Assembly (NCBI GenBank): GCA_045863475.1
Contig: BTUR01000001.1
Span: 184,978 to 248,977, forward strand
Source of the DNA: Candidatus Campbellbacteria bacterium
GTDB taxonomy: Bacteria; Patescibacteriota; Minisyncoccia; Phycocordibacterales; EsbW-18
Direction of reading: 5' to 3'
Length of the DNA: 64,000 nt
Below are positions 20,625-61,447 of the stretch, piece after piece. The first letter of the stretch is position 1. Each line of letters starts with the position of its first letter. The position numbers and the translations under genes are program-made. Below the pieces are notes generated by a model that worked only from the letters and a program-made list of their open reading frames with translations, ran no database searches and was not told where the DNA came from.

Positions 20625-21908
20625 ATGACATTCGACCTTAAAACACTAACAACCGTTCTCGGCGAACTCGAAGAGGAGCGGGGTGTTGCAAAAGAAAAAG
20701 TACTCGACGCGATTGCAATTGCGCTCGCGACCGCATACAAAAAAGAGTACGGCAAGCGCGATCAGATTGTGCGCGCAACATTCGACCTCAACACGGGCGC
20801 AACTGAATTCGAACAGGTAAAAACTGTCGTTGATGAAACGACCGTTCGATTTAAAGAAGACGGCGAAGAAGAAGAGGAAACGTCTGACACGGAAACTGAA
20901 GACGGTGTGGTGAAGCTTCCTGTTTTCAATCCCGAAAAGCACATGCTCCTTCCCGACGCGCAAAAAATAAAGAAGGGAGCGAGCGTCGGTGATGAAGTCG
21001 TTTTCCCGCTTGAAGCGCACGATGACTTCGGACGCATTGCCGCACAAACCGCAAAGCAAGTTATCATCCAGAAAATCCGCGAGGCGGAGAAAGAGCACCT
21101 CTCTGCAGAATACGGACAGCGCGAGGGAGAAATTCTTTCCGGCTCCGTGCAGCGCATTGAGCGCGGCAACATTTTCGTTGACCTCGGCCGTGCCGTCGGC
21201 ATCCTGCCGTACGACGAACAAATTCCCGGCGAGCGTTACCGCCCCGGCGAGCGCATCCGCGCATACCTTTTCAAAGTTGAAGAGACGCCGCGCGGCGTGT
21301 TCCTTCGCCTCTCACGTTCGCACCCGCAGTTCCTCGCGGAACTCTTCGCAAACGAGTGCCCCGAAGTAGCGCAGGGCGTTGTTGAGATCAAAGCGATTGC
21401 ACGCGAACCCGGAAGCCGCTCGAAGGTCGCAGTGTGGTCAAACGACGATCACATTGACCCCGTCGGTGCCTTGGTGGGACAGCGCGGCGTGCGCGTCTCA
21501 ACCGTCATGAGTGAATTGGCCGGTGAAAAAATTGACGTCATTGAATGGTCTGAGACGCCGGAGCACTTCATCGAAGACGCGCTCTCACCCGCAAAGGTGC
21601 TCTCCGTCGAGATTATCGACGAAGAAAGTCACAGTGCAATCGTTCGCGTAACCGAGGACCAGCAGTCGCTCGCCATCGGCCGCGGCGGACAAAACGTTCG
21701 CCTCGCCGCGAAACTCACCGGCTGGCGCATCGACATCCAGTCAGCCGGCGGTGAATCGCTCGACGAAGAGTCACCTGAGGAATCTGTTGAACACGTCGCA
21801 ACCGAGATCGCTGATGAAACAGAATCACCGAAAGCTCCTGAAAAAACAGCCGATGAAACGGAAGCACCCGAAGAAACGGAGGGTACCAAAAAAGACGGGG
21901 AAGAATAA
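20625..21908 (+). CDS. nusA: transcription termination/antitermination factor NusA, with an acidic insertion in the N-terminal domain
   Basis: S1 and KH domains (GEILSGSVQRIERGNIFVDLG; IDPVGALVGQRGVRV; LAIGRGGQNVRLAAKLTGWRIDI). Confidence 0.9.
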   Translation: MTFDLKTLTTVLGELEEERGVAKEKVLDAIAIALATAYKKEYGKRDQIVRATFDLNTGATEFEQVKTVVDETTVRFKEDGEEEEETSDTETEDGVVKLPVFNPEKHMLLPDAQKIKKGASVGDEVVFPLEAHDDFGRIAAQTAKQVIIQKIREAEKEHLSAEYGQREGEILSGSVQRIERGNIFVDLGRAVGILPYDEQIPGERYRPGERIRAYLFKVEETPRGVFLRLSRSHPQFLAELFANECPEVAQGVVEIKAIAREPGSRSKVAVWSNDDHIDPVGALVGQRGVRVSTVMSELAGEKIDVIEWSETPEHFIEDALSPAKVLSVEIIDEESHSAIVRVTEDQQSLAIGRGGQNVRLAAKLTGWRIDIQSAGGESLDEESPEESVEHVATEIADETESPKAPEKTADETEAPEETEGTKKDGEE

Positions 21909-26640: not shown

Positions 26641-28170
26641 ATGGATCTAAAACTTGTAGCATTTCTGCTCGCGGCCGCCGGGTTAGTCGGCATCGCGCTC
26701 GGATACTTCCTGCGCTATCTCGTCTCGCTCGGCCAGCGCGGGTCTGTTGAACTTGAAATCAAGCGCAAACTCCTTGAGGCACAGGAGGAAGCAAACCGCA
26801 TTATTGAGAACGCGGAGAAAAAGGCCGACGCGAACCTTGAAGAAGCGCAGAAGGAAGCGGAGGAATTTGAAGAAAAACACAAAAAGACCGAGGAGCGCCT
26901 CATTAAAAAGGAAGAGTTCCTCGACAAACGCCAGGCCGACATCGACCACCTCGGTGAAGAGCTCAAAGAAAAGATGGAAGAGGTAGACGTACTGCGCACC
27001 GAGACCGAAACACTGAAGGAGAAGCGCGAACAAGAACTTCAGGCGGTATCGCGTCTCTCAGAAGAAGAAGCGAAAGATCTCTTTATAAAAGAAATTGAAA
27101 AGAAATACGAAGCAGATCTCATGGCACGCATGCACAAGCTTGAGGTCACCGGCAAAGAACAGCTTGAAAAGAAGGCGCAGGATATTCTCATCACCTCCAT
27201 TCACCGTCTCGGCAACAACGTGACGTCCGACATTATGTCGTCATCAATTGATTTGCCGTCTGACGACATGAAAGGAAAAATCATCGGTAAGGAAGGACGC
27301 AACATCAAAGCATTTGAGCGCGCATCCGGCGTTGAAGTCGTTGTTGATGACACACCGGGGCTCATCATCCTCTCGTCGTTTGATCCGGTTCGCCGCGCAG
27401 TCGCCAAATTGGCCTTGGAGCGCCTCATTAAAGACGGCCGTATCCAACCGGCGCGCATTGAAGAAGAAGTCGAGAAAGCACGACAGGACATCAATAACAT
27501 CATCAAAGAAAAAGGTGAACAGGCGGCATACGACGCAGGTGTATTCAATCTTGACCCGCGCGTCATCTCGATTTTGGGACGCCTCCACTTCCGCACGAGC
27601 TACGGACAAAATGTATTGCAGCACTCCGTTGAAATGGCGCACCTCGCCGGCATGCTTGCTGAAGAGCTGGGCGCTGACGTTGCGGTCGCGAAAGCAGGTG
27701 CCCTGGTTCACGACATCGGTAAAGCGGTTGACCACGAAATCCAAGGAACGCACGTTGAAATCGGACGACGTATTCTGCAAAAATTCGGCGCGGATGAGGC
27801 AATCATCAAAGCAATGCAGGCGCACCACGAAGAGTACCCGTACGAAACACTGGAAAGCATCATCGTGCAGGTCGCCGATGCGGTTTCCGGTTCTCGTCCC
27901 GGTGCACGCCGCGACACGGTTGAAAACTATCTCAAGCGTCTCTCAGACTTGGAGAACATCGCCACATCCTTCTCCGGTATTGATAAGGCGTACGCCATTC
28001 AGGCAGGTCGTGAGATTCGCATCTTCGTAAACCCTGAAGCAATTTCCGACATTGAAGCAAAAACACTCGCACGCGATATCGCCAACAAGATTGAAGCGGA
28101 GTTGAAGTATCCGGGCGAAATCAAAGTCAACGTCATCCGCGAAAACCGCATCATCGAATACGCGCGATAA
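26641..28170 (+). CDS. rny: ribonuclease Y
   Basis: N-terminal TM, coiled-coil, a KH domain (GKIIGKEGRNIKAFERASG) and an HD domain (HSVEMAHLAGMLAEE...LVHDIGK). Confidence 0.9.
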   Translation: MDLKLVAFLLAAAGLVGIALGYFLRYLVSLGQRGSVELEIKRKLLEAQEEANRIIENAEKKADANLEEAQKEAEEFEEKHKKTEERLIKKEEFLDKRQADIDHLGEELKEKMEEVDVLRTETETLKEKREQELQAVSRLSEEEAKDLFIKEIEKKYEADLMARMHKLEVTGKEQLEKKAQDILITSIHRLGNNVTSDIMSSSIDLPSDDMKGKIIGKEGRNIKAFERASGVEVVVDDTPGLIILSSFDPVRRAVAKLALERLIKDGRIQPARIEEEVEKARQDINNIIKEKGEQAAYDAGVFNLDPRVISILGRLHFRTSYGQNVLQHSVEMAHLAGMLAEELGADVAVAKAGALVHDIGKAVDHEIQGTHVEIGRRILQKFGADEAIIKAMQAHHEEYPYETLESIIVQVADAVSGSRPGARRDTVENYLKRLSDLENIATSFSGIDKAYAIQAGREIRIFVNPEAISDIEAKTLARDIANKIEAELKYPGEIKVNVIRENRIIEYAR

Positions 28171-29229: not shown

Positions 29230-29320
29230 CCCTTCTTTGTCCCACATACAAAAACGCTCTGCTCTTGGCAGAGTGTTTTTGTTTACCACTTTTTTTGTTA
29301 CTATAACGCGTGTTTCCGAT

Positions 29321-29391
29321 GCGGGATTAGTTTAGTGGCAAAATGACTGCCTTCCAAGCAGTAGACGCCGGTCCGATTCCGGCATCCCGCA
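29321..29391 (+). tRNA. tRNA-Gly (anticodon UCC)
   Basis: Acceptor GCGGGAT/ATCCCGC, anticodon stem-loop ACTGC-CTTCCAA-GCAGT, T-arm GCCGG-TCCGATT-CCGGC; CCA is not encoded. Confidence 0.75.
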
Positions 29392-29399
29392 CTAATTTG

Positions 29400-29468
29400 C
29401 CTTCCAAGTAGATGGAGATGTGTTTGAACACATCTCCATGGAGTCCGATTCTCCCTGCCCGCACAGAG
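29400..29468 (+). pseudogene. tRNA-derived fragment: anticodon-arm-like segment, a perfect 11-bp hairpin, then a T-arm/acceptor 3' strand identical to tRNA-Gly(GCC)
   Basis: TTGCCTTCCAAG, then ATGGAGATGTGtttgaaCACATCTCCAT, then GAGTCCGATTCTCCCTGCCCGCA, which is identical to 33314-33336. No 5' acceptor strand or D-arm is present. Confidence 0.45.
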
Positions 29469-29503
29469 TTTTTAAAACAAGGACATAGTGGTTTCATACA
29501 AAA

Positions 29504-29531
29504 ACCCCGCCACATACGTGGCGGGGTTTTT
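29504..29531 (+). terminator. rho-independent terminator
   Basis: CCCCGCCACATACGTGGCGGGG followed by TTTTT. Confidence 0.6.
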
Positions 29532-29822
29532 GCTTTTGAGGAGTAATCCTCATTCTGCGTGCTATGCAGCAGATTCTTCACCTTGGGGCTGTGCCTCTCC
29601 TTCGGCAGGTGCCTCCGGCATCGGCTGGCCTTCTGCAGGCTGCTGACCCTCCGTCTCCGGCTGGTCAACCTGCGGATTTACATTTTGATCGGTCATATGC
29701 AAGATGAGTTAGCTGACAATTAAATCCGCAGAATGCGGATTTGTAACTTCATACTACCAGAAACAAGCACTTCGGGCAACAAAAATCGCCCCGCGGCTAC
29801 GGGGCGATTTTGTTTGAGAGAT

Positions 29823-30251
29823 CTAACTAAACCACTGACGAAATCCTCGTGCACGAGGCAGTAAAAGAAGCAGTGCAAGCGGCGCGCCCCAGTTTGCCCA
29901 TCGTTCGACGAAGTCCCAGATTGACTCACCCATAATAGGACGCACGAGCGCGGTCCATAATCCCCAAAACGCCATCCAGAGTAGTGCGATGCGAATTGGT
30001 TTCACCAAAATAATGAGTGCAAGAATAATATCCATCAAACCAATGAGCGTCAGGAGCGTCATCGCCGTCCCCTGCTCCACCTTCATCAACTCCTGAATCC
30101 AAATAACCCACTGTTCCTTTCCGTTGTACGCAAGTATGCCGTGTCCGAAGAACTCTCCGGCGACCGCAATGCGCAACACCCATTCCATTGCTTTTGTATT
30201 CATACAAAAATAAATTAAAAAATGACTGATACCCTCAGTGTACGGCATCAA
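29823..30251 (-). CDS. hypothetical membrane protein
   Basis: 142 aa with 4 predicted TM helices. Confidence 0.4.
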   Translation of the reverse strand: MMPYTEGISHFLIYFCMNTKAMEWVLRIAVAGEFFGHGILAYNGKEQWVIWIQELMKVEQGTAMTLLTLIGLMDIILALIILVKPIRIALLWMAFWGLWTALVRPIMGESIWDFVERWANWGAPLALLLLLPRARGFRQWFS

Positions 30252-30291
30252 TCATTTTTTACGAGAGACCATGTGTATTGTCTCAACCTAG

Positions 30292-30362
30292 TCGGGGCGC
30301 CGAGAATCGGACTCGGTCTACTTGGTCCCAAACCAAGCGTACTACCGGTATACTACGCCCCG
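30292..30362 (-). tRNA. tRNA-Pro (anticodon UGG)
   Basis: Reverse complement gives CGGGGCG-TAGTATACCGGTAGTAC-GCTTGG-TTTGGGA-CCAAGT...CCGAG-TCCGATT-CTCGG-CGCCCCG-A; CCA is not encoded. Confidence 0.7.
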
Positions 30363-30742
30363 CTTTTGCCCTCCAACCCTCTTCTTATCTCATCGTGAAT
30401 AATCCTGTGGCAGTTAGCACACACAACTATACACTTTTTTATCTCTTTTATAAGTTTTTCGGACCCCACCTCTCGACGAAGTCCCCCTATTGTGAATGAT
30501 TTTGTCCCCTCAATTTTGTGATGAAAATCAAGCACTCTCGAATCGGCGTTGCCACAACGGTAGCATCCCCGGCTTTGTTTATATTCAGAGATCCACCGAT
30601 AATGCTTTTCTATAAGTGATTGTTTCGTCGCGCGATAACAATCGCGACACTTTCTCCGCCTAAATACCTTGCGTGGTGTTGTTAGTGCAACGCCAAAATA
30701 GTCGTCCGGGAATGTTTTGCCACAGTATTTGCATTTTTTCAT
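30353..30742 (-). CDS. HNH endonuclease, small standalone
   Basis: CxxC...CxxC, the LDFHHKI and CANCHRIIH motifs; its last 10 nt overlap the tRNA-Pro(UGG) 5' end. Confidence 0.7.
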   Translation of the reverse strand: MKKCKYCGKTFPDDYFGVALTTPRKVFRRRKCRDCYRATKQSLIEKHYRWISEYKQSRGCYRCGNADSRVLDFHHKIEGTKSFTIGGLRREVGSEKLIKEIKKCIVVCANCHRIIHDEIRRGLEGKSGA

Positions 30743-30802
30743 GCCCCAATTCTAGGGCGTGGATATAAATTTGGGATAAAATCACACATCCCAAAGAACA
30801 GG

Positions 30803-30873
30803 TCGGGCTGCCGGGAATTGAACCCGGTCTACATCCACCCCATGGATGCGTACTACCGGTATACTACAGCCCG
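30803..30873 (-). tRNA. tRNA-Pro (anticodon GGG)
   Basis: Reverse complement gives CGGGCTG-TAGTATACCGGTAGTAC-GCATCC-ATGGGGT-GGATGT-AGA-CCGGG-TTCAATT-CCCGG-CAGCCCG-A. Confidence 0.65.
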
Positions 30874-30981
30874 AGTGAGGAAAATCAGGTTTTATGTTCA
30901 CATGAAAACTGATTTTCCGAGCGAGGGACGTATCGAGATGCGCAGCAGCGAAGATACGCCCGACGAACTAATCTAGCATTT

Positions 30982-31740
30982 TTACATTTTTTTCTCCACC
31001 GAACTTTTCTTTAAACTCTTCCACACAATCTCAAAAATCTCGCGCATCGTCTTTGTAATCGCCGGGTTCTCAATCACTAATCCTTGTAAATTAAGCGGAT
31101 CAAAAAATCGCACAAACGTCGGACCAATCTCTACGGCAATGTCCGACGAGTATTCTCCTGCAGGTGCTTCAACAAATTCGCGTCCATACTCGATATCTTT
31201 TGCCCGAAATTCTTTCAAAGAAGGATCTTTCGGAGCGATACCTTGCATTCGCACCCCTCTGTTTTTCAACTCTTCGTTGTATTCCTCATATCCGCCGAAT
31301 ATTTTCATAACCTCAGGCGATGTTTTGGCATAGAAACCTTTTACAATTCCTCCCTCAAGAGAATCCAGACCGTACCGCAAAACTTCTTTCGCACCCTCAG
31401 CACCGTCAAAAAACAGCACTTGCGGTTTTTCGGTACCAACTTTCTCCAACGCCTTGATTTCCGGAAGCGCCCGCTCAACCTGTTCCAACCTTTCACGCGC
31501 CTTTTCAATCAGGTTTTCCGGCGATATCGCACGATAGAGCCTCTTTTTTGTACGTGGAACCAAAACCGCCGCTCCTTTGCGTACAAGCTCGTTAAGAATC
31601 ACATATGCCGTCGGACGTTTAAGCCCGCTGACAACCGCCACGGAGTACGCAGATGTCGTCCCGCGCTTCAAAAGAGCAAGGTATACCGCCGCCTCTTTCT
31701 CGGAAAACCCCAAGCGTTGTATAAGCTCCTGAAATTCCAT
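30982..31740 (-). CDS. TrmB-family winged-helix transcriptional regulator
   Basis: N-terminus LGFSEKEAAVYLALLKRGTTSAYSVAVVSGLKRPTAYVILNELVRKG is TrmB-like HTH, followed by a C-terminal effector-like domain. Confidence 0.55.
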   Translation of the reverse strand: MEFQELIQRLGFSEKEAAVYLALLKRGTTSAYSVAVVSGLKRPTAYVILNELVRKGAAVLVPRTKKRLYRAISPENLIEKARERLEQVERALPEIKALEKVGTEKPQVLFFDGAEGAKEVLRYGLDSLEGGIVKGFYAKTSPEVMKIFGGYEEYNEELKNRGVRMQGIAPKDPSLKEFRAKDIEYGREFVEAPAGEYSSDIAVEIGPTFVRFFDPLNLQGLVIENPAITKTMREIFEIVWKSLKKSSVEKKM

Positions 31741-31949
31741 ACATGGGCAGTATATACGCAACAGAAATAATAGTCAATATTTTTGACAACCTAAAGTGAT
31801 GGACGCATTAAAACCTTATTCTCAGGCGTTTTTTGACGTTTCACTGCACTATTTTTAGTCATAGTATTTGACATTTTATTCAAACCCATGTACACTGTGT
31901 CCAGATGATGAGCAATAAAGCTCATCGAGATCTTTGAGGAGACACTCTC

Positions 31950-32432
31950 ATGTATATCGAGGTCATCGGTGACACTCGGAACGGCGGAGATGTTTGGGCT
32001 GAAGTGGTAATCGGCGAGTGGAGCGGCAAGCCCCACCTCGATTCCGAACAAGCCACCATCTTCTACACCCCACTCTCAGAGCCGGTCCGGCAGGTTCTCG
32101 ATTCGCTTGGTCACAAGCACATCGAGGCCTTCGAGCATCTCTTCCTGCAACTCTTCCGCGCAGGCATGGATGCCGAGCATGATTGTCCTGAGATTATTCA
32201 AAATATTCGGGACATCTGGGAGCTCGACGCCGAGCAAGAGCGAGAGAGGCTCTGGCAAGAGGAGCACCGGGCCGGAATTGAGTACTGGGGCTCTAGGGGA
32301 CCAAACACCATCGAAAAGGACGAGCTGCTCGGAAAACAAATCTGGCAGGGACTCTCGATTGATGGTGGTGGTAACGAGGAGACGGCCCAGGAGTCCGCGG
32401 AGGACTCAGAAACAGAACCTCCGAAGCCGTGA
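31950..32432 (+). CDS. hypothetical acidic protein
   Basis: 160-aa ORF with high GC. Confidence 0.35.
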   Translation: MYIEVIGDTRNGGDVWAEVVIGEWSGKPHLDSEQATIFYTPLSEPVRQVLDSLGHKHIEAFEHLFLQLFRAGMDAEHDCPEIIQNIRDIWELDAEQERERLWQEEHRAGIEYWGSRGPNTIEKDELLGKQIWQGLSIDGGGNEETAQESAEDSETEPPKP

Positions 32433-32487
32433 GGCCGAAGACTCACGCACAGCCAACGGGAAACCGGGGCTGTTTTTTTATAAGTTT

Positions 32488-32892
32488 CTAAAGGACATTC
32501 TCAATGACACCTATTCTGGCAGTTTTGTCCTTTAGATTTAACTTTACCGTAACCACGTCCAGTTGGAATTTTGTTTCACGTGGAACATCCTTATCTACCA
32601 GGTAGGTTTGAATTACCCGTGAAAGCCGCTTGAGCTTTTCACGTGTAACATGTTCCTCTGGTCTTATTTGATTTGTTTCACGTGAAACATTACTTGTTTC
32701 TGTTTCCCATGAAACACACTTTACCTCAACAAAGTGAACTACGGATTCTTTGCAAGCAACAACATCCAACTCACCCCATTTTCTAAGATAATTTCTTTCA
32801 ATTATTGAAAAACCCTGTTTCATGAGAAACCGGACAGCCAGATCTTCCCCGATTCTTCCTATTTTTGATGTTTTTGTACCTAATTGTTTCAC
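32488..32892 (-). CDS. YraN/UPF0102-family predicted endonuclease, with a repeat-derived insertion
   Basis: GEDLAVRFLMKQGFSIIERNYLRKWGELDVVACKESVVHFVEVK is the YraN core. The ORF also contains multiple GTTTCACGTGAAAC-type palindromes that encode a low-complexity insert. Confidence 0.55.
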   Translation of the reverse strand: MKQLGTKTSKIGRIGEDLAVRFLMKQGFSIIERNYLRKWGELDVVACKESVVHFVEVKCVSWETETSNVSRETNQIRPEEHVTREKLKRLSRVIQTYLVDKDVPRETKFQLDVVTVKLNLKDKTARIGVIENVL

Positions 32893-33265
32893 GTGAAACT
32901 ATATTTTATAAAAAGCCTTATTTTATAACGTTTTTCATAAACTAAAGGACTTCAAGGACTGGTGTCTTTTACACATATCCCCGTTGTTATCCCCATTTTA
33001 GTGTTGAAAAATAAAGTTTTCTTAAAGACTTTCCTTGCTGTCTTTTTCATCTGATGTTCAAAATTGATTTCTTAGAGGCCTTGCCACTAAGTGCTTAGTG
33101 GCGAGACCTCTTGGGTACAACTTGGAAAAAAGTGTATATACGCTATACTCCAAAGCGTGCTGAAAGCACACTTGCGGGCATATGCGGTAGGTAGCATATG
33201 TCGCTGCGTTTGGAAAAGATGGGACTGAAGATCTCCAATCTTCATTCCGCCTTATTCCTCATTTG

Positions 33266-33336
33266 CGGGCATGGTTTAGTGGTAGAACACGTCCTTGCCA
33301 AGGACGAGACGGGAGTCCGATTCTCCCTGCCCGCAC
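33266..33336 (+). tRNA. tRNA-Gly (anticodon GCC)
   Basis: GCGGGCA...CGTCC-TTGCCAA-GGACG...GGGAG-TCCGATT-CTCCC-TGCCCGC-A, followed by CCA at 33337-33339. Confidence 0.8.
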
Positions 33337-33361
33337 CAAGTTGGTTACCCAAAATACTACC

Positions 33362-33386
33362 GTAGTGTGCTCCCGGAGGGATTCGG
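33362..33386. repeat. duplicated tRNA-Arg 3'-end fragment (direct repeat of 33481-33500)
   Basis: TGTGCTCCCGGAGGGATTCG occurs at both sites; the intervening 95 nt contains further T-arm-like debris (GGCTTTCGAATCCCTCC). Confidence 0.5.
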
Positions 33387-33482
33387 TCACAGATACTTTT
33401 CTGCTGAAAAGTCCTTCGACCCCGCCTCGCACCGTCGTGCTCCGGCTTTCGAATCCCTCCGAAAACATCGTATTACAATTTG

Positions 33483-33554
33483 TGCTCCCGGAGGGATTCG
33501 AACCCCCAACAACAGGTTCGAAGCCTGTCGTGATATCCATTTCACCACGGGAGC
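33483..33554 (-). tRNA. tRNA-Arg (anticodon UCG)
   Basis: Reverse complement gives GCTCCCG-TG-GTGAAATGGATATCAC-GACAGG-CTTCGAA-CCTGT-TGTTG-GGGGG-TTCGAAT-CCCTC-CGGGAGC-A. Confidence 0.7.
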
Positions 33555-33620
33555 AGATACGGTCGTATCATAATCTGATTCTTCGCTTTTTGCTACGGAT
33601 TTTCAATATACAATCAATGT

Positions 33621-35084
33621 ATGAAACCCATCCCTAAAGAAGTTCGCGGCGTTGTCGCACTGCTTCAGCACGGAGGCTACGAGGCATACCTTGTCGGCGG
33701 ATGTGTTCGGGACATCTACCTCAACCGAACACCCAAAGACTGGGACGTGACGACAAACGCAACGCCGGAGCAAATCCAGGCGGTTTTTCCGCACACGTTC
33801 TATGAAAATGATTTTGGAACCGTTGGTGTGGTCAACGACGACACGGAAGACCCGACACTAAAAAATATTGAGGTAACACCGTACCGAAAAGAAGGGAAGT
33901 ACACCGACAAACGCCGCCCTGACGAGGTTGTCTTCGGCGCAACGCTTGCAGAAGACCTCGCGCGTCGCGACTTCACCGTCAACGCACTTGCGTACGACCC
34001 CGCAACGGAGACACTGGTTGACCTCTACGACGGGGAAGAGGATCTCGCAAAGGGAGTTATTCGCGCGGTGGGCAATCCTGATGAACGTTTTGAGGAAGAT
34101 GCACTGCGATTGCTGCGTGCCGTGCGCCTTGCAACCGAACTTTCCTTCGAGATCGAAGAAAAAACGGCAACCGCCATCAAGCAACGCGCAAAAAACCTCG
34201 GTGAGATTTCCGGCGAGCGCATTCGCGAAGAACTCAGCAAAATTCTTATGTCTGACGCGCCGTTCCGTGGCCTGGAAATTCTCCATGAACACGGACTGCT
34301 CCGTTTTGTCGTTCCCGAACTCTCCGAAGGAGTCGGCGTGGGTCAGAATCAGGCCCATTCTTTCACGGTTTTTGAGCACATCGGTCGCACCGTGCAGGCG
34401 GCGGCGGATAAAAAGTTTCCGCTTGAAGTCCGGCTCGCGTGTCTCTTCCATGACATTGCAAAACCGCACACAAAAGCGATGGATACGAAGAAAAACGACT
34501 GGTCATTCCACGGGCACGAGGTTGTCGGAAGCCGTATCGCACGAAAACGCCTCCAGGAACTCCGATTTTCCAACGATGTCATTGATACGGTGATAAAACT
34601 TGTGCGTTGGCACATGTTTTTCTCCGACACTGAGCAAATCACGCACTCCGCGGTGCGCCGGCTCATACGAAACGTCGGACGGGAGAACGTGGAAAACATT
34701 TTAAACGTCCGCATCTGCGATCGCATCGGCACCGGACGTCCGAAAGAGCAGCCGTACCGGCTCCGCAAGTACAAAGCAATGATTGATGAGGTGATGCGCG
34801 ACCCGGTGTCCGTCTCGATGCTTGCAATTGACGGCCGCGGACTCATGCAACTGCTTGATGAGAAACCCGGACCGCGCGTGGGGTGGATTTTGCACGCACT
34901 CTTAGAAGATGTGCTTGATGATCCGACACGCAACGAGCTCTCCTATTTGGAAAAACGCGCGTTTGAACTCGCCGGTATGCCTGAAAAAGAACTGCGCGCA
35001 CTCGGTGAAAAGGGAAAGGACGCACGTGAAGAAGCGGAGGAAAAGGAAGTCAAAAAGATCCGCTCAAAGCACCACGTGCAGTAG
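33621..35084 (+). CDS. cca: CCA-adding enzyme / poly(A) polymerase-family tRNA nucleotidyltransferase with an HD domain
   Basis: GGCVRD...DWD nucleotidyltransferase head, the RDFTVNAL motif, and HD-domain motifs HSFTVFEH and LFHDIAKP. Confidence 0.85.
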   Translation: MKPIPKEVRGVVALLQHGGYEAYLVGGCVRDIYLNRTPKDWDVTTNATPEQIQAVFPHTFYENDFGTVGVVNDDTEDPTLKNIEVTPYRKEGKYTDKRRPDEVVFGATLAEDLARRDFTVNALAYDPATETLVDLYDGEEDLAKGVIRAVGNPDERFEEDALRLLRAVRLATELSFEIEEKTATAIKQRAKNLGEISGERIREELSKILMSDAPFRGLEILHEHGLLRFVVPELSEGVGVGQNQAHSFTVFEHIGRTVQAAADKKFPLEVRLACLFHDIAKPHTKAMDTKKNDWSFHGHEVVGSRIARKRLQELRFSNDVIDTVIKLVRWHMFFSDTEQITHSAVRRLIRNVGRENVENILNVRICDRIGTGRPKEQPYRLRKYKAMIDEVMRDPVSVSMLAIDGRGLMQLLDEKPGPRVGWILHALLEDVLDDPTRNELSYLEKRAFELAGMPEKELRALGEKGKDAREEAEEKEVKKIRSKHHVQ

Positions 35085-37073: not shown

Positions 37074-37100
37074 CCCCTCACACGAGGGGTTTTATTTTTT
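37074..37100. terminator. bidirectional rho-independent terminator
   Basis: CCCCTCACACGAGGGG with an A-run on one side and a T-run on the other; serves the ncRNA on + and the Xer gene on -. Confidence 0.6.
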
Positions 37101-38000
37101 CCCGTGAAAGTTTTTATGCACGTCGCGCAGGTGTTTGTCGGTGACGTGCGTGTAAATCTGCGTCGTCGTGATGTTCGCGTGACCTAAGAGCGCCTGCACC
37201 GAACGCAGATCCGCGCCGTTTTCCAGCAAGTCGGTGGCAAACGAGTGACGCACGACGTGCGGTGTTACTTTTTTTGAAATACCCGCTTTCACGGCGTACC
37301 GTTTCACGAGGCGTTCGACAGAACGTGCAGATAACCGCAAATCTGAACGGCTTTTTGAGGACGGCCCCGCCTGTACAAACATCGCATCATCAAGATCGGC
37401 ACGCTTTGCAAGATAACTTTCAACCGCGGCGCGTGCGGTGGGGGAGACAAACACGACACGCACCTTATCTCCCTTGCCACGAATGGAGAATTCTCCGCGC
37501 GAAAGATCAATATCGCGCGGCAACGACACGAGTTCAGAAACGCGCATGCCGGTGGAGAACAAGAGTGCAAGAATCGCGCGGTCGCGCAGGGCAGTCAGTG
37601 AGTCGCCCTCGGGTGCACGCATGAGACGTGCAAGTTCTGAGGACGTAATGAGATCCAAATCGCGGTCACCGACTTTCGCAAGTTCAATCGCCTCCGGCTG
37701 AAGACTCTCTACGCCGCGTTTGCGCAAAAATTTCAGAAATGCGCGCAGTGCGATGAGATAGTAGTTCTGCGTTTTCTTCTTCAGCGTCTCGCCGCTTTTT
37801 CCTCCGGCATCCTGACGGTTCAGCCACAGGCGGAACTCACGCACCACCGTCTCAGTGATGTCCTTCGGTTTCGAGACTTTGGAGAAGGTGATGAAGCGGG
37901 AGAGGTACCGGTCGTAATTTTCAACCGTCTTCAGCGAGCGGCCGCGCTCGATTTCAAGATACTCGAGGAATTCGCGCTTGAGTGTTTCAACATCTTTCAT
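37092..38000 (-). CDS. xerC: tyrosine recombinase, XerC/XerD family
   Basis: N-terminal SAM-like domain (LEYLEIERGRSLKTVENYDRYL) and the catalytic region ...HVVRHSFATDLLENGADLRSVQALLGHANITTTQIYTHV with R...HxxR...Y. Confidence 0.85.
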   Translation of the reverse strand: MKDVETLKREFLEYLEIERGRSLKTVENYDRYLSRFITFSKVSKPKDITETVVREFRLWLNRQDAGGKSGETLKKKTQNYYLIALRAFLKFLRKRGVESLQPEAIELAKVGDRDLDLITSSELARLMRAPEGDSLTALRDRAILALLFSTGMRVSELVSLPRDIDLSRGEFSIRGKGDKVRVVFVSPTARAAVESYLAKRADLDDAMFVQAGPSSKSRSDLRLSARSVERLVKRYAVKAGISKKVTPHVVRHSFATDLLENGADLRSVQALLGHANITTTQIYTHVTDKHLRDVHKNFHGKK

Positions 38001-38123: not shown

Positions 38124-38390
38124 ATGTTCCTGTACATCCTGATTGCCGTCGGAGCGTACATACTGCTGGGGGGCATCTACGTGTGGTCCCTCAGGAAGAT
38201 CTACGCACGGAGGCCGGCCTGGGAACCAAGATCTGACGACACCTGGTTCATGAGAGTATTTCTCGAACCGGATGTCCGTGCCGGTCTCTGCTGGCCGATA
38301 CCCGTAGTGGCGATGACGGTGACGGCCGTAATCGTGGTCGTTGTAACCTCGATTGCCGCGGTGCTCAACGGCTTCAAGTTCACCAACTAG
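38124..38390 (+). CDS. hypothetical small membrane protein
   Basis: MFLYILIAVGAYILLGGIYVW plus a second TM segment; high GC. Confidence 0.35.
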   Translation: MFLYILIAVGAYILLGGIYVWSLRKIYARRPAWEPRSDDTWFMRVFLEPDVRAGLCWPIPVVAMTVTAVIVVVVTSIAAVLNGFKFTN

Positions 38391-38439
38391 CAATCCCAGC
38401 CCGCCCGCACAAAAATTTCTGTGTGCGGGCGTAGTACTT

Positions 38440-38660
38440 GCAAAAACTCTAACACGTGCTATAGTTGCATCGGCTCGACGAAGTAACTTCCGAAGGTTTC
38501 CGCTCTCTGGGGCACCTCGCCAGAGACCCTTGTAGCTGTGCACGGACAGGGGCTCACACAAAAACGGCCCTGGAGTATGCCGAGAAACTGGGTGAAAACA
38601 TCGAGCCATGGGGTGCCCACAAGCACCCCATCATTTTGTAAAAAGCATTAGGAGCAGGTA
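38440..38660 (+). promoter_or_regulatory. putative promoter plus a roughly 170-nt structured leader/attenuator upstream of rpsO (candidate S15 autoregulatory leader or independent small RNA)
   Basis: TTGCAA, a 16-nt spacer, TATAGT at about 38441-38468. GGCTCGACG at about 38470 pairs with CATCGAGCC at about 38605. Terminator-like ATGGGGTGCCCACAAGCACCCCAT followed by CATTTTGT at 38609-38640. Confidence 0.4.
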
Positions 38661-38673
38661 TACTCTTTGCATC

Positions 38674-38937
38674 ATGGCATTAACAAAGAAGAAAAAGGTA
38701 CGTGTTATCAAGGAAACCGCGCGTCACGACAGTGACACCGGCTCTCCTGAAGTACAGATTGCGCTTTTGAATAAGCGCATTGACGAACTTGCGAAGCATC
38801 TCAAAGGCAACCGCAAAGACAAGCACTCCCGACGCGGACTGCTCGGTTTGGTCGCACAACGACGCTCACATCTCAACTACCTGAAAAAAAAGAGCCCAGC
38901 AAAATACGCTGAGCTTCTCAAGCAGATTAAGGAGTAG
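38674..38937 (+). CDS. rpsO: 30S ribosomal protein S15
   Basis: MALTKKKKVRVIKETARHDSDTGSPEVQIALLNKRIDELAKHLKGNRKDKHSRRGLLGLVAQRRSHLNYL. Confidence 0.9.
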   Translation: MALTKKKKVRVIKETARHDSDTGSPEVQIALLNKRIDELAKHLKGNRKDKHSRRGLLGLVAQRRSHLNYLKKKSPAKYAELLKQIKE

Positions 38938-38954
38938 CAACTCCTACAATTATT

Positions 38955-39569
38955 ATGTCTATCATCAAACAAAAGGCACAACGCGTTGCCGTTTTTATTG
39001 ACGCGCAAAACATCTATCACAGCGCACGCAACCTCTACAATGCGCGTGCAAACTTCGGCCAAATCGTTGACGACGCGGTTGACGGCCGTCCGCTCATACG
39101 CTCTATCGCGTATGTCATCTCCACTGAAGAGGGGAGTGAAAAAACATTTTTCGAAGCACTTGAAAAAGCCGGCATTGAAACAAAAACAAAAGACCTCCAA
39201 ATTTTTGCCGGCGGTCAGAAGAAAGCCGACTGGGACGTCGGACTCGCAATTGATGCGGTAAAGCTCGCGCCCAAACTCGACGGAGTTATTTTGGTCTCCG
39301 GTGACGGCGACTTCATTCCGCTCGTGAAATATCTCCAGGTCAACGAAGGGTGTCAGGTGGAGGTTGTCTCATTCGGACGCTCAACATCCGCAAAGCTTAT
39401 TGAAGCCGCGGACCACTTCACCGATCTCGACGAGAATCCCCGCAAATATCTTTTGGGATACCGTGGCGGCAAAATACAACGACGCGAGCAAGGAGCCGCA
39501 CCGCGCGAACAGCAGAAAAACGAACCGTCTTCAAACGGTCCGAAAACTGTCCGCCGACGCTTGGACTAA
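38955..39569 (+). CDS. NYN-domain (LabA-like, PIN-related) predicted ribonuclease
   Basis: VAVFIDAQNIYHSA...DVGLAIDAVKLAPKLDGVILVSGDGDFIPLV shows the NYN acidic motifs; it lies between rpsO and pnp. Confidence 0.65.
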   Translation: MSIIKQKAQRVAVFIDAQNIYHSARNLYNARANFGQIVDDAVDGRPLIRSIAYVISTEEGSEKTFFEALEKAGIETKTKDLQIFAGGQKKADWDVGLAIDAVKLAPKLDGVILVSGDGDFIPLVKYLQVNEGCQVEVVSFGRSTSAKLIEAADHFTDLDENPRKYLLGYRGGKIQRREQGAAPREQQKNEPSSNGPKTVRRRLD

Positions 39570-39708
39570 CAACACGAACATAAAAACCTCCCGCATCTCG
39601 GGAGGTTTTTTATATCAGAACAGAAGATGTTGACTAAACCAATAAAATTGTTATAATACTCTCAGATGCTAATCACTGACGTCTCTGCTTTCCCACAAGG
39701 AGAACGCG

Positions 39709-40266
39709 ATGTTGGAGTGGATCATGCAAGTCGCACAGAGTCATCCGTTCATCGTGATGCCCATCGTGCTGTTCGCCGCGGCCGTCGTAGTGCTGGTGCT
39801 CATCGCCTTCGGCTACGACCTCACCCGTCCCTACCGGGATCGGAAGAAGGGGGAGAGTATCCCCTACAAGAAGGCGGTCGTCGCACTCTTCGCCCTCAGC
39901 ATCCTCTCGGGGTGTGCCAAAGAGATGACCGCGGAAGAGCGCGCGTTCGTCGCATCCATGGAAGACCGCATCGTGGCCGCTCAACCAGACACGATGATTC
40001 TGACCTGGAACAACAACCTCGGACGAATCGTTCGGGTGGAAGTTCTCGGGGAGAAAGATGAGCGGTCAAGGATGCAAGTGCACGTCGAGTGGCCGGATGG
40101 CACCCACACGTGGTACGCCCCTCGTGCTCTCGCCCGAACCACCAAGCGAATCGCTGACGGTAGCAGCAGCACGGAGATGACGGGCGTCCTCTTGGAGTGG
40201 TGGTTGCAGAGCTCGCTCCAACGAGATACCCCGCAGCCGCCGGCTCGATCCGGCCCGACACCGTAA
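39709..40266 (+). CDS. hypothetical membrane-anchored protein
   Basis: 185-aa ORF with two N-terminal TM helices; high GC. Confidence 0.4.
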   Translation: MLEWIMQVAQSHPFIVMPIVLFAAAVVVLVLIAFGYDLTRPYRDRKKGESIPYKKAVVALFALSILSGCAKEMTAEERAFVASMEDRIVAAQPDTMILTWNNNLGRIVRVEVLGEKDERSRMQVHVEWPDGTHTWYAPRALARTTKRIADGSSSTEMTGVLLEWWLQSSLQRDTPQPPARSGPTP

Positions 40267-40432
40267 CCCAGCCCCGCCCGTCTTGGCACAAAGCCAGACG
40301 AGGCGGGGCTTCTTCATTTCTCGGGTGCGCGGTGCTACAGTACAAGCGTTACTAGTAGCGTCTTTAGCCCTCAGATGGCTAGGTTTGAAGTCTCTTCAAA
40401 TCTAAGATCTGGGGACTAGGCATCAGTCCCAC

Positions 40433-42661
40433 ATGCAGAAAAAAATTTTTACTACGGAAGTAGGCGGCAAAACACTGACCGCCGAGTTCAACGACCTTGC
40501 AATGCAGGCAAACGGCTCGTGCTTGGTCTCGTACGGCAACACAACCGTCTTGGCAACCGCCGTCATGGGCTCTCAGGAGCGCGAGGGATTGGATTACTTT
40601 CCGCTCACCGTTGATTACGAAGAAAAATTCTACGCCGCAGGAGCGATTTTGGGCAGTAAGTACGTGCGCCGCGAAGGCAGACCGTCTGACGAAGCAATTC
40701 TCTCGGGCCGCGCCGTTGACCGCACCGTACGACCGCTCTTTGATGCACGCCTTCGCGTTGAAGTGCAGGTCGTCATCACCATACTTTCAATCGGCGAAGA
40801 TGACCCGGATGTCGTCTCCGTGCTTGCCGCATCACTGGCACTCGCAACATCCGACATTCCGTGGGCAGGACCGGTGGGCGCCGTTCGTCTCGGCCTCGAC
40901 ACGCAGAAAAACTGGATCGTAAACCCGACGTACGACACGCGCGAGACAAACGTGATGGATATTCTGGTGTGCGGACAAAACGGACTGATCAACATGATTG
41001 AAACCGGCGCGCTCCAAATCCCGGAAGAAACAATTATTGAGGCGCTCACGAAGGCCTCTGCCGAAATCACCGCGCTTGAAGCATTCCAAAACAAGGTCAT
41101 CAAAGAAATCGGAAAAGAAAAGAAAGTGTTTTCATTCCCGGAACTCTCAACAGAAGCACGCGACCTCTTTGCAAAAGAAATCGAACCGAAGCTTGCAAGC
41201 GCGGTGTTCACCGGCATCTCCGGAGGCGAAGCAACCGGCGAGTTGCACACAACGTGGAAAACACTTCTCAAAGAGCAGTTGCCTGATGAAAACCGCGGTT
41301 TGGCAGATCTGTACTTCGAAGAGAAAGTTGAAAGCGCATTTGACGAAGGTGTGCTCGAAGGCCGCCGCCCCGACGGCCGTGACTTCGATGAGGTGCGTGC
41401 CATTTACGCGCAAGCAGGCGGTGTAGCACCAATGCTCCACGGTGCCGGCATCTTCTACCGCGGCGAGACACACATCTTTGCCGCACTCACGCTCGGCGGT
41501 CCCGACGACATTCAGGAACTGGAAGGTATGGAGGTACAGCGCAAAAAACATTTCATGCTCCACTACAACTTCCCGCCGTACTCAACAGGGGAGACGGGAC
41601 GCATGGGTGGCACCAACCGCCGCATGATTGGTCACGGCGCACTTGCTGAAAAAGCACTTCTGGCTGTTATCCCGCCGAAGGAGTTGTTCCCGTACACCAT
41701 TCGTTTGGTTTCGGAAGTTATGTCGTCCAACGGCAGCTCATCAATGGGTTCCGTCTGTGGCGGCACCTTGGCCTTGCTCGACGGTGGTGTTCCGATTGCA
41801 TCCCCGGTTGCAGGTATCGCGATGGGTGTCGTTATCGGAGAGAACAACGCGTACAAAGTGCTCACCGACATCCAGGGACCTGAGGATCACTACGGCGACA
41901 TGGACTTCAAAGTTGCAGGAACGCGCGACGGCGTCACCGCAATGCAAATGGACGTGAAAGTTGCCGGTGTTCCGCTCTCGGTATTCCCGGAAGCGTTTGA
42001 GAAAGCGAAGCGTGCGCGCCTGCACATTCTTGAGAAAATCACCGAAGCAATTCCTGAGGCACGCGCCGACATCTCACCGCTTGCACCGAAGATTCTCGTG
42101 ACGAAGATTAAGAAAGACCAGATTGGGCTCGTCATCGGCGGCGGCGGCAAGACCGTCAACCAAATCCGCGACCTCACCGGCGCTGAAATCTCCATTGAAG
42201 AAGACGGTACGGTCTTCGTCACCGGCAAAAACGGCGCGGCAGAGAAGGCGCTCAAGATTATTGAAGCTATCACGCGCGAATTCCACGCAGGCGAGACATT
42301 CCAGGGAGAGGTAACGCGCATCGCCGAGTTCGGTGCATTCGTGCGCCTCGGTGAAGACACGGGCATCTCAGGTATGAAAGGAACGGAAGGGTTGGTGCAC
42401 ATCTCGGAGATTGCACCGTTCCGCATCGGAAACGTAGAAGATGTTTTGAAAGAAGGTGAAATCGTTCCCGTCGTCATCAAAGAGATGGGGGAGGAAGGGC
42501 GCATTCGACTCTCCATCAAAGATATCGACCCTGAATTCGCATCGCGCAAGGGAGTTGCACCGTTTGAAGGCCCGCTTCCGCAAAACGACCACCCGCGCAG
42601 ATCCGGTAGCAGTGACCGGCCACGACGATTCGGCGGAGGCCACGGCGGCCCGCGACACTAA
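40433..42661 (+). CDS. pnp: polyribonucleotide nucleotidyltransferase (PNPase)
   Basis: Two RNase PH domains, a KH domain (IGLVIGGGGKTVNQIRDLTGAEI), an S1 domain, and a Gly/Arg-rich tail. Confidence 0.95.
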   Translation: MQKKIFTTEVGGKTLTAEFNDLAMQANGSCLVSYGNTTVLATAVMGSQEREGLDYFPLTVDYEEKFYAAGAILGSKYVRREGRPSDEAILSGRAVDRTVRPLFDARLRVEVQVVITILSIGEDDPDVVSVLAASLALATSDIPWAGPVGAVRLGLDTQKNWIVNPTYDTRETNVMDILVCGQNGLINMIETGALQIPEETIIEALTKASAEITALEAFQNKVIKEIGKEKKVFSFPELSTEARDLFAKEIEPKLASAVFTGISGGEATGELHTTWKTLLKEQLPDENRGLADLYFEEKVESAFDEGVLEGRRPDGRDFDEVRAIYAQAGGVAPMLHGAGIFYRGETHIFAALTLGGPDDIQELEGMEVQRKKHFMLHYNFPPYSTGETGRMGGTNRRMIGHGALAEKALLAVIPPKELFPYTIRLVSEVMSSNGSSSMGSVCGGTLALLDGGVPIASPVAGIAMGVVIGENNAYKVLTDIQGPEDHYGDMDFKVAGTRDGVTAMQMDVKVAGVPLSVFPEAFEKAKRARLHILEKITEAIPEARADISPLAPKILVTKIKKDQIGLVIGGGGKTVNQIRDLTGAEISIEEDGTVFVTGKNGAAEKALKIIEAITREFHAGETFQGEVTRIAEFGAFVRLGEDTGISGMKGTEGLVHISEIAPFRIGNVEDVLKEGEIVPVVIKEMGEEGRIRLSIKDIDPEFASRKGVAPFEGPLPQNDHPRRSGSSDRPRRFGGGHGGPRH

Positions 42662-42813
42662 TAAATCAGGCATCGTTACTTAACCCAACTACCCGCCGTG
42701 CGCGGGTAGTTTTGTATATTGACAAATGTTATTTATATGCTATTCTGTTCACTAGCAAGTTCGTTGTTGGGGCTTGCCAACACATACACGGCCCTAGGCC
42801 GAAGGAGAAGACA

Positions 42814-54193: not shown

Positions 54194-55189
54194 ATGGATA
54201 CCACACGAACCACACCAAGCAGTAAGATTGTCGCGCTCGCCATCATTGTCGTCGCTGTTGTGGTTGCGTCGTGGCTCATCAAATTCGGAGGGAAGACCGA
54301 AGGAGTTGCCGATACGCGCTTTACGACCTCAGACGCTCAAAAAACATACGTGAATGAAACCGACACCGATGGGGACGGACTAAAGGATTGGGAAGAGTCG
54401 CTGTGGGGATTTAATCCAAAAAATGCTGACTCCGACGGGGATGGCATCAATGACGGCGCCGAAAAACAGGAACTACAGGCACAGATACTCACGCAACAAG
54501 AAGCATTTGCACAGCTTCTCGACCCCACACAGGACCCGAATTGGGAATCGCTCTCGTACACCGAACAGGTGACCGGACGACTCCTTGCTGACTACCTCAC
54601 ATTCAAACAGACCGGTCGTGCGCTCACCGAGAAAGACGCTGCCGCGCTCGTTGAAAATCTTCCGACATATGAGATTCCAACCAAGGCGGCACCGCGCGTG
54701 TACTCACTCACCGAACTGCGTCTCTCAAATGCAGCAGGAGAAGGCGCGTTGTACGCGTACGGAAACGAAGTTGGTTCCGTGCTTTCAGTTCCCGAGAATG
54801 AAACCGCTCCAAACGAACTCCTCGTGCTCGTGTCATTCATGCGTTCGGGTGACGACGCGGTATTTGTACGCGACCTGCAAATCGTTATTACTCAATACAA
54901 CACGGTAATTTCCGAACTGCTTGCCATCACAGTTCCAAAAAGCATTGTCGTCGAACACCTTGGTGTCATCAACGCGCTGTCTGCAGTACAAAATGATCTT
55001 CGTTCTTTCTACAGCTTTACGGAAGATCCATTCCTCGCGCTTTCAGTGTTCACTGCATATAATGAAAGTACGACGCAACGCGACGAGGCGTTCGACGCAT
55101 TGCGCGCGGCCCTCGCGGATGAGGGTGTTGCATACCCAGAAACGGAACCGGGATACGTACTTATGAGCGCCGCTTCTCTATCACTATGA
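54194..55189 (+). CDS. membrane-anchored protein with thrombospondin-type-3-like Ca2+-binding repeats
   Basis: N-terminal TM; DTDGDGLKDWEE and DSDGDGINDGAE repeats. Confidence 0.5.
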   Translation: MDTTRTTPSSKIVALAIIVVAVVVASWLIKFGGKTEGVADTRFTTSDAQKTYVNETDTDGDGLKDWEESLWGFNPKNADSDGDGINDGAEKQELQAQILTQQEAFAQLLDPTQDPNWESLSYTEQVTGRLLADYLTFKQTGRALTEKDAAALVENLPTYEIPTKAAPRVYSLTELRLSNAAGEGALYAYGNEVGSVLSVPENETAPNELLVLVSFMRSGDDAVFVRDLQIVITQYNTVISELLAITVPKSIVVEHLGVINALSAVQNDLRSFYSFTEDPFLALSVFTAYNESTTQRDEAFDALRAALADEGVAYPETEPGYVLMSAASLSL

Positions 55190-56904: not shown

Positions 56905-56907
56905 CGT

Positions 56908-59094: not shown

Positions 59095-59098
59095 CCCA

Positions 59099-59734: not shown

Positions 59735-59759
59735 TTGGGAACAGGGAACGGTCATGAAT

Positions 59760-60292: not shown

Positions 60293-60309
60293 GGAACAGG
60301 GAACGGTCA

Positions 60310-60714: not shown

Positions 60715-60766
60715 AAAGCCCTCCTAAACCGTTCTGTTCACCGTTCCCGGTTCCCAGTTCCCTAAT

Positions 60767-61444: not shown

Positions 61445-61447
61445 TCT

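Follow-up and report, generated by a model that had tools for sequence, protein, structure and literature searches.

We analyzed a window of 64 kb, meaning the whole stretch of DNA considered here, from a Candidatus Campbellbacteria (Patescibacteria) metagenome-assembled genome, in which a gene for a predicted nuclease of the NYN family lies between the genes for ribosomal protein S15 (rpsO) and polynucleotide phosphorylase (PNPase; pnp). The genes and signals of this locus are located on the plus strand unless stated otherwise. rpsO (38674..38937) encodes an S15 of 87 aa (PF00312, E 1.1e-29; TIGR00952, 101 bits); a longer reading of 109 aa is an artefact of the open reading frame (ORF) caller, since an independent gene call gives 87 aa. 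It is followed by the NYN gene (38955..39569) encoding a stand-alone LabA-like (LK-nuclease) protein of 204 aa, by ORF185 (39709..40266) encoding a lineage-unique small membrane protein of 185 aa, and by pnp (40433..42661), whose product of 742 aa (NF008805, 786 bits) carries two RNase_PH domains, a KH and an S1 domain. A XerC/D-type tyrosine recombinase gene (37092..38000, minus strand; Pfam Phage_integrase, E 6.7e-42; SAM-like N-domain) is divergent from rpsO. A preliminary description of this DNA had placed a 204-aa NYN-domain protein directly after rpsO with an 18-nt gap, and a hypothetical membrane protein before pnp. The ORF is present at 38955-39569 and matches PF01936 from end to end (E 9.5e-37). 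It does directly follow rpsO, but the gap measures 17 nt, with rpsO ending at 38937. The label given to ORF185 is fair, since the protein has one strong hydrophobic segment, a transmembrane segment at aa 13-36. The window contains a single copy of the NYN gene. Its product has the same sequence as the NCBI protein AMXMBFR44_2500 (Candidatus Campbellbacteria bacterium) and carries the label “NYN domain-containing protein” in public records. A separate assembly of run DRR491769, from Logan, shows the same order rpsO-NYN-ORF185-pnp and also has ORF185 called as a gene.

The match to PF01936 (127.1 bits, gathering cutoff 24.2) covers the complete model (positions 1-145 of 145) and residues 10-159 of the protein. 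PF01936 was the sole Pfam family reported, and the Rae1/YacP family PF05991 gave no match at E ≤ 0.01. The archaeal-type NYN hypothetical equivalog TIGR00288 was matched in its C-terminal half only, with 19.5 bits against a cutoff of 178.45, which leaves the protein outside that family. It was likewise not assigned to the PADLOC defence candidate “LabA-like NYN nuclease” (PDLC01154): the match is restricted to model positions 222-297 (76 of 310; E 1.8e-12) and the neighboring genes are housekeeping genes. The closest solved structure by sequence is 2QIP (VPA0982 of Vibrio parahaemolyticus), which aligns with residues 8-160 (E 1.4e-27; profile E 1.6e-33) and has the FIDxQN, DWDVG and SGDGDF motifs (D16, D92, D94, D117, D119) in register. 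In alignments with close homologues (24 sequences, 64–82% identity) and with 10 distant homologues, the six aspartates D16, D92, D94, D100, D117 and D119, predicted ligands of the catalytic metal, are invariant in 24/24 and 10/10 sequences, respectively; among the 24, 79 columns are invariant, the initiator methionine included. The conservation of the acidic motifs that had been claimed for this protein is thus borne out, and the loss of catalytic residues that would have spoken against it was not seen. In an AlphaFold2 model built on the 24 homologues, D16 (FIDAQN) ends the strand formed by residues 9-16, D92, D94 and D100 start the helix 92-104, and D117 and D119 (SGDGDF) follow the strand 110-115. 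Among PDB structures, Foldseek finds the model closest to 2QIP (E 1e-13, TM-score 0.59–0.71) and to the NYN domains of MARF1 from mouse and human (E 6e-6 to 6e-4). Judged by its sequence, NYN is a bona fide LabA-like NYN predicted nuclease with an intact acidic site, and its modelled fold is of the PIN-like alpha/beta type.

The core of NYN (aa 1-169) is acidic with an isoelectric point (pI) of 5.2, while the tail (aa 170-204) is basic with a pI of 11.6 and predicted to be disordered. Distant homologues often have much longer tails rich in Lys and Arg. Basic tails of this kind commonly serve to hold nucleic acid, and the tail of NYN probably holds RNA. We noticed that in long-tailed variants (window 39463-39566; P0003, P0004, P0026, P0027 and P0056) a variable low-complexity stretch leads into a shared terminal peptide close to PK(T/I)V(R/K)R(R/K)L, which may be a docking motif. 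The PNPase of the window also ends in a basic, Arg/Gly-rich extension (aa 700-742, window 42530-42658; pI 11.6) resembling the NYN tail in character.

Homologues of NYN are numerous: at E ≤ 1e-5 they form more than 8000 clusters at 90% identity, the best 120 of which are 65–100% identical, and clustering at 50% leaves 176 representatives with E ≤ 1e-30. We analyzed the gene context in two samples. Sample 1 was drawn from one genome per GTDB species and comprises the best 80 of at least 592 loci encoding a NYN relative, ranked by NYN similarity. Sample 2 comes from a metagenome scan seeded with distant NYN homologues and comprises 40 bacterial loci with usable upstream sequence and 34 others. 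In 78 of the 80 loci of sample 1, S15 is the immediate upstream neighbor on the same strand, and the remaining two have little or no upstream sequence. The spacer between rpsO and NYN has a median length of 105 nt (range -4 to 485 nt, apart from a single spacer of 1199 nt). In 45 of these loci pnp follows NYN on the same strand at a distance of up to 6 kb, and in 16 the NYN-pnp spacer is at most 340 nt. All 40 bacterial loci of sample 2 have S15 upstream on the same strand (38 within 700 nt, 2 behind an insertion), and 35 of them have pnp downstream, usually 90–280 nt past NYN, the misses being mostly at contig ends. The PNPases of these loci are 40–50% identical to that of the window, XerC is mostly absent and the flanks are different; seven loci read holA ... 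S20-S15-NYN-PNP-S16-KhpA-TrmD, the order of a Falkowbacteria lineage. By their database names the linked loci of sample 2 belong to Candidatus Falkowbacteria, Portnoybacteria and the “Parcubacteria group”. In relatives linked to both S15 and pnp, NYN is always located between rpsO and pnp. The arrangement is therefore not unique to one assembly, as relatives and the separate Logan assembly share the gene order.

NYN is also the most conserved of the three proteins. It shows the highest identity to the window in 39 of the 42 loci of sample 1 that carry the whole trio, with median identities of 72% for NYN, 60% for S15 and 58% for PNPase. Sample 1 was picked by NYN similarity and its ranking is biased accordingly; sample 2, obtained with a different and distant query, is much less so, and here NYN ranks first in 25 of 28 loci (medians 59%, 49% and 45%). 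NYN is under very strong purifying selection. All S15-linked NYN cores fall into one block of a neighbor-joining tree, separate from the unlinked cores. It appears that rpsO-NYN-pnp is one ancient arrangement, which Parcubacteria-type Patescibacteria have retained. We did not find a description of the rpsO-NYN gene order in the literature on NYN/rpsO, on Patescibacteria or on COG1432/DUF88; as far as the searchable literature goes, neither the conserved rpsO-NYN-pnp arrangement nor the unusually high conservation nor the pnp leader motif presented below appears to have been reported.

In sample 1 the locus is part of a larger syntenic block with the order YraN<, CCA>, Xth<, XerC<, S15>, NYN>, (PNP>), Pro-rich membrane protein>, DksA-like>, ComM>, M23<, in which arrowheads give the orientation. 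A XerC homologue is located upstream on the opposite strand in 63 of the 80 loci. Extra ORFs frequently separate XerC from rpsO, and NYN from the conserved gene that follows it, and interrupt the rpsO-NYN pair in 3 of 78 loci only.

The 34 other loci of sample 2 have no S15 or PNPase nearby. Their named members are Woesearchaeota, Nanoarchaeota, Thermoplasmatota and one Aminicenantaceae bacterium. Genes of archaeal type, for example those for family B DNA polymerase and Sec61-type SecY, are among their neighbors. The assumption that all unlinked homologues are from DPANN lineages was rejected, as Thermoplasmatota and one Aminicenantes bacterium are among them. Unlinked NYN cores about 57% identical to those of Patescibacteria were seen in Woesearchaeota (L084, L089, L107), Nanoarchaeota (L151), Thermoplasmatota (L090, L102) and Aminicenantaceae (L117), and this identity across domains suggests either horizontal transfer or very strong constraint. 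In three archaeal loci (L101:1958-5219, L102:3659 onward, L106:4142-6771) NYN is located between a small methyltransferase gene and uL15-SecY-adenylate kinase, a position at the end of a ribosomal protein gene cluster. The sole duplication that we saw is on a contig grouped as Aminicenantes-like by the tree and by its N-terminal sequence (L144), with two NYN copies (4977-5504 and 7352-7879) 2.4 kb apart whose first 40 residues are identical.

We predicted the layout of promoters and terminators by consensus scans and by RNA folding in comparison to 200 shuffles. A candidate rpsO promoter (TTGTAA-17-TATACT, 38636..38664) has 9 of 12 consensus matches, which is weak evidence; it ends 9 nt before the ATG, so the rpsO leader would be very short or absent. 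The 17-nt gap between rpsO and NYN contains no terminator; the one hairpin here, of 6 bp and spanning the rpsO stop codon, is weak and not followed by a U-run, and NYN is predicted to be co-transcribed with rpsO in this genome. Downstream of NYN we found a hairpin resembling an intrinsic terminator (39582..39610) with a 12-bp stem, a 5-nt loop and arms formed by an A-run and a U-run (-18.2 kcal/mol, z-score -6.1; 0/200 shuffles equally stable), which the consensus scanner had missed because the U-run is absorbed into the stem. It is followed by the best promoter of the region, a strong sigma-70-like promoter of ORF185 (TTGACT-16-TATAAT with TG, 39630..39657; 11/12 matches). ORF185 has a ribosome-binding site, GGAGAA, 5 nt before its ATG and a terminator of its own (40267..40310), a long GC-rich hairpin followed by a U-rich stretch (fold of 40262-40330 -39.6 kcal/mol, z-score -5.9) with a partial match of the terminator scan at 40300-40312. 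Between this terminator and pnp, about 22 nt upstream of the hairpin in the pnp leader, lies an extended -10-like element, TGCTACAGT (40333..40341), which we read from the sequence as a candidate promoter of pnp. A further terminator-like hairpin after pnp (42687..42711; 10-bp stem, 6 GC pairs, T-rich tail) was detected by the terminator scan.

ORF185 has no match in Pfam, NCBIfam or PADLOC, and no homologue was found in any of 160 related loci. Its GC content is 61% (77% at third codon positions), compared to 49–56% GC in the flanking genes. ORF185 is probably a recent foreign insertion at a frequently inserted site between NYN and pnp, and pnp is predicted to form a separate unit from rpsO-NYN here because this small foreign gene is inserted between them. 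Unrelated inserted ORFs were seen between NYN and pnp in many relatives. When examining the rpsO-NYN spacers of relatives (L006, L013, L025, L035, L044, L049, L055, L066, L074, L075, L079 and others) we noticed a terminator hairpin and a TGnTATAAT promoter. These spacers also contain a recurring AUUUUAAUAA element about 25–35 nt before the NYN start, and in many of these relatives (L006, L013 etc.) NYN has a U-rich UUUUAUAUG start context and no Shine-Dalgarno sequence.

The spacers between NYN and pnp are unusually structured (median z-score -5.6, 40 of 43 below -2) and many share sequence. From 27 hand-picked pnp leaders we built an alignment and from it a covariance model, R1. The hairpin consists of a 13-bp helix P1, an internal loop of 3 nt (RRN) opposite 2 nt (NA), a 10-bp helix P2 starting with YAG...CUR, and a variable tip. 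In the 27-leader alignment 21 of the 23 pairs show compensatory changes. Pairing is found in 92.6% of cells compared to 70.8% in column shuffles (0/500 reach the observed value), and it falls to 28–48% when the partners are slid by 1–3 columns. The model was run over the window and the 160 loci (1.45 Mb, both strands). It gave 52 plus-strand hits, one per locus, and all 52 loci also carry NYN. Fifty of them precede a pnp gene of the same orientation by 7–162 nt (median 15), and the other two occupy the corresponding position on contigs whose end cuts pnp off; the remaining hits are only weaker reverse-strand echoes of the same hairpins. Since the seeds were chosen from pnp leaders, only the 25 non-seed hits, which pair in 89.6% of cells, and the absence of the motif elsewhere are independent evidence. 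The hit of the window (40363..40420, 59.7 bits) ends 12 nt before the pnp ATG; other examples are L061:5684-5740 and L119:3409-3467. Many of the 52 leader hairpins, that of the window included, have a TGnTAn[A/C]nT element in the 60 nt before them, according to a regular-expression count that also takes in reverse-strand echoes.

No family of Rfam 15 matches the pnp leader hairpin. A search of the whole window at the Rfam gathering thresholds returned five tRNAs only and no known S15 or pnp leader family, and under permissive settings the region 38300-40500 yielded nothing beyond weak hits due to the terminator hairpin. A hairpin finder allowing no mismatches was dropped in favor of the covariance model, as it returned 12 true and 18 unrelated hits. 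In many loci the 3’ arm of the leader ends about 7–15 nt before the start codon, and the helix therefore probably covers the ribosome-binding region of pnp. The motif is missing in 34 of 84 pnp loci at E ≤ 0.1. In many of these hairpin-less relatives (L009, L023, L026, L051, L012, L043, L039, L068) we noticed a TGnTAnAnT element about 7–10 nt before the pnp ATG, which suggests that their pnp mRNAs are leaderless and that the clade has two alternative modes of pnp expression. We consider the leader hairpin a candidate PNPase autoregulatory element specific to Patescibacteria.

Several known systems are comparable to this locus in part. VPA0982, the structural type of the LabA-like NYN/LK-nuclease/DUF88/COG1432 group, belongs to the same Pfam family as NYN and is its best structural match (alignment of 153 residues), but it is only about 31–35% identical, lacks the basic tail and has no known function. 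Rae1/YacP of Bacillus subtilis (PF05991) is, like NYN, a small stand-alone NYN-type nuclease among translation-related genes and cleaves mRNA in a ribosome-dependent way; it differs in its Pfam family and its gene context. As in the window, rpsO and then pnp are located on one strand in E. coli and Streptomyces, with a pnp promoter and a long leader hairpin. In E. coli the rpsO terminator and the pnp promoter lie between the two genes, and a terminator between the genes is present in many relatives here too. In the classical operon rpsO is directly followed by pnp, whereas NYN and ORF185 lie between them in the window. The predicted pnp leader hairpin of the window is Patescibacteria-specific and has a motif different from the hairpin of E. 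coli and Streptomyces. LabA/LalA of Synechococcus elongatus fall into the same COG1432 group as NYN (PMC5499597) but are known only as genetic modifiers of circadian KaiC feedback and have no link to rpsO or pnp. Most bacterial relatives of the LabA-like NYN group carry OST-HTH domains (PMC2848206), which NYN of the window lacks. The NYN domain of MARF1 is a proven endoribonuclease stimulated by Mn and Mg, which degrades a single-stranded oligonucleotide with an active site formed by a four-aspartate cluster (PMC6294520). It shares the fold and the same kind of acidic cluster with NYN (5YAA, 6FDL). The identity is only 14–16%, and MARF1 is a eukaryotic multidomain protein (RRM, LOTUS) that acts in mRNA decay together with decapping factors; the likeness supports the notion that NYN may work like MARF1, not that the two are orthologs.

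The explanation that we favor, and to which we give about an even chance, is that NYN is a housekeeping metal-dependent endoribonuclease coupled to PNPase, and that its position reflects co-expression and cooperation. NYN would be an active divalent-metal-dependent endoribonuclease whose catalytic core is acidic and whose short tail is basic and disordered, serving as an RNA-processing and decay enzyme in Parcubacteria-type Patescibacteria. Its gene would have been fixed between rpsO and pnp in the ancestor of these lineages and then kept, joint expression and action of NYN and PNPase being the likeliest reason for the kept position. Internal cuts by NYN would create ends for the 3’-5’ exonuclease PNPase on mRNA, on rRNA precursors or on both. 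More broadly, the best reading of the locus ties such an enzyme in function to PNPase, to the ribosome or to both. A more far-reaching version, which we regard as unlikely, is that NYN is an unrecognised core endoribonuclease of ultra-small prokaryotes, with close relatives (cores about 57% identical) in DPANN and Thermoplasmatota archaea, that initiates decay or maturation as partner of PNPase across Parcubacteria-type Patescibacteria and also cuts the unpaired purines of the leader, thereby setting PNPase levels; if true, rpsO-NYN-pnp would be a self-contained RNA-turnover module unlike the RNase III circuit of E. coli. A number of observations weigh against a NYN nuclease coupled to PNPase. 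pnp is not found in the 6 kb downstream of NYN in 35 of the 80 loci of sample 1. The rpsO-NYN spacers of relatives contain a terminator-like hairpin in 39 of 72 cases and a TGnTAnnnT element of their own in 34 of 72; with spacer hairpins and/or -10 promoters in about half of the relatives, rpsO and NYN are therefore predicted to be separate transcription units often, and it is the gene order that is conserved while the predicted transcription units vary. A block of at least 10 unrelated genes is syntenic in Paceibacteria-type relatives, and part of the rpsO-NYN linkage is therefore shared ancestry (phylogenetic inertia). The confidence of the NYN model is moderate (predicted local distance difference test 65, core blocks 70–88). 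Cyanobacterial LabA has been characterised by genetics only. Within the NYN fold group ribonuclease activity has been shown for MARF1 only (PMC6294520), and the bacterial COG1432/LabA-like group is classed as “function unknown” with no member tested as a nuclease (PMC5499597; PMC2848206).

The preliminary description had suggested that a nuclease at exactly this position is an alternative processing or regulatory nuclease for the S15/PNPase transcripts. In E. coli, RNase III cuts in the long hairpin of the pnp leader in the course of PNPase autoregulation. As a dedicated cis-regulator NYN would cut the rpsO-NYN-pnp transcripts, for example in the internal loop or at the tip of the leader, and set the levels of PNPase and S15, replacing RNase III or acting alongside it. 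NYN does sit exactly at the position of the E. coli rpsO-pnp regulatory region, the spacers between NYN and pnp are strongly structured, and the covarying leader hairpin with its conserved unpaired purines is found in 52 NYN-carrying loci. However, two terminators and two promoters, comprising the hairpin at 39582-39610, the ORF185 unit and the pnp promoter, intervene in this genome, and the leader duplex of about 23 bp is the kind of substrate that RNase III cuts. NYN also stays next to rpsO where pnp is leaderless, where the hairpin is missing (34/84) and where pnp is not nearby (35/80), and such extreme conservation would be unusual for a regulator with a single target. A survey of 505 high-quality genomes of the Candidate Phyla Radiation (CPR) found rnc, rnj and pnp retained in at least 90% (PMC12641178). 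Within the 64-kb window, the part of this genome that was scanned, we found no RNase III signature motif in any of six frames and no RNase III domain among the 48 larger ORFs run against Pfam; signature motifs of RNase III, YbeY, RNase J and RnpA were absent from all six frames of the window and the 160 loci. Some published CPR genome and protein-family descriptions make no mention of RNases. Since rnc is usually kept and NYN is independent of the hairpin and of pnp proximity, a role limited to regulating the rpsO/pnp transcripts or to replacing RNase III is unlikely, although NYN may contribute, for example by cutting at the conserved unpaired purines, and we hold the dedicated cis-regulator to be very improbable.

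A nuclease linked to the ribosome is less probable than a partner of PNPase but deserves more weight than the other alternatives. NYN would then mature rRNA or tRNA precursors (for example the 16S 3’ end, or the intervening sequences that are common in rRNA genes of the CPR) or cleave mRNA on the ribosome in the manner of Rae1/YacP, and the invariant partner would be rpsO and not pnp. The adjacency to rpsO is indeed invariant while pnp is often elsewhere, NYN is conserved at the level of core translation proteins, and three archaeal homologues lie directly upstream of uL15-SecY-Adk. Earlier comparative work has placed bacterial NYN genes in tRNA and rRNA processing neighborhoods (PMC5499597, citing Anantharaman and Aravind 2006), and the CPR survey states that these organisms carry about half of the usual ribosome biogenesis factors (PMC12641178). 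Against such a role, NYN lacks a match to PF05991, S15 is not known as a nuclease partner, and most archaeal and Aminicenantes homologues have no ribosomal neighbors. Protein-only RNase P, considered by analogy to PRORP/HARP, was dropped as a candidate, as nothing in the NYN context points to tRNA genes. It is also conceivable, if improbable, that the adjacency is purely historical and that NYN has an unrelated role as a DNA nuclease, a component of a toxin or defence system, or a LabA-like non-catalytic regulator. The large syntenic block of unrelated genes fits this explanation, as do the independent promoter and terminator that NYN often has, the archaeal and Aminicenantes homologues in unrelated contexts and the partial PADLOC match. 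On the other hand, the trio is kept in lineages with different flanks and insertions avoid the rpsO-NYN junction; the insertion-poor junction and the trio kept in the distant sample argue for more than inertia. A single NYN copy in the window and a conservation above that of S15 and PNPase are atypical of defence systems and toxins, and no antitoxin-like partner is present. The PADLOC match is confined to the shared NYN core, which together with the housekeeping context makes a role in defence unlikely.

Other parts of the window contain further genes of RNA metabolism. NusA (20625-21908) and RNase Y (26641-28170) are encoded near the locus, as is a CCA-adding/poly(A) polymerase-family enzyme (33621-35084), which belongs to the block conserved upstream of rpsO in 44 of the 80 relatives. 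The region 29300-33600 has a lower GC content (45.5% at 30-32 kb, compared to 50–57% elsewhere) and contains five tRNA genes as well as genes for a TrmB-like regulator (30982-31761) and a YraN/UPF0102 protein (32488-32892). At 54194-63391 large unannotated proteins are encoded together with PrgI-like (59879-60292) and TraG/VirB4-like ATPase (61448-63391) genes, which suggests a type IV secretion or conjugation-like apparatus.

A large part of bacterial diversity belongs to the Patescibacteria, whose gene sets for RNA processing and ribosome biogenesis are pared down and whose RNases have been recognised almost exclusively through homology. A predicted nuclease of about 170 aa that is conserved above S15 and PNPase and, in many lineages, locked between their genes makes a strong candidate for a housekeeping RNase so far missing. 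The LabA-like NYN proteins of bacteria number in the thousands and have no biochemical function assigned to them, and the locus gives this family a testable context with PNPase, S15 and the leader RNA. From the covarying hairpin of the pnp leader one could learn whether autoregulation of PNPase is ancient and what its wiring looks like in these organisms. As an rpsO-pnp locus with an embedded nuclease gene and a leader RNA of its own, it is a lead for those who study RNA decay and the biology of the CPR.

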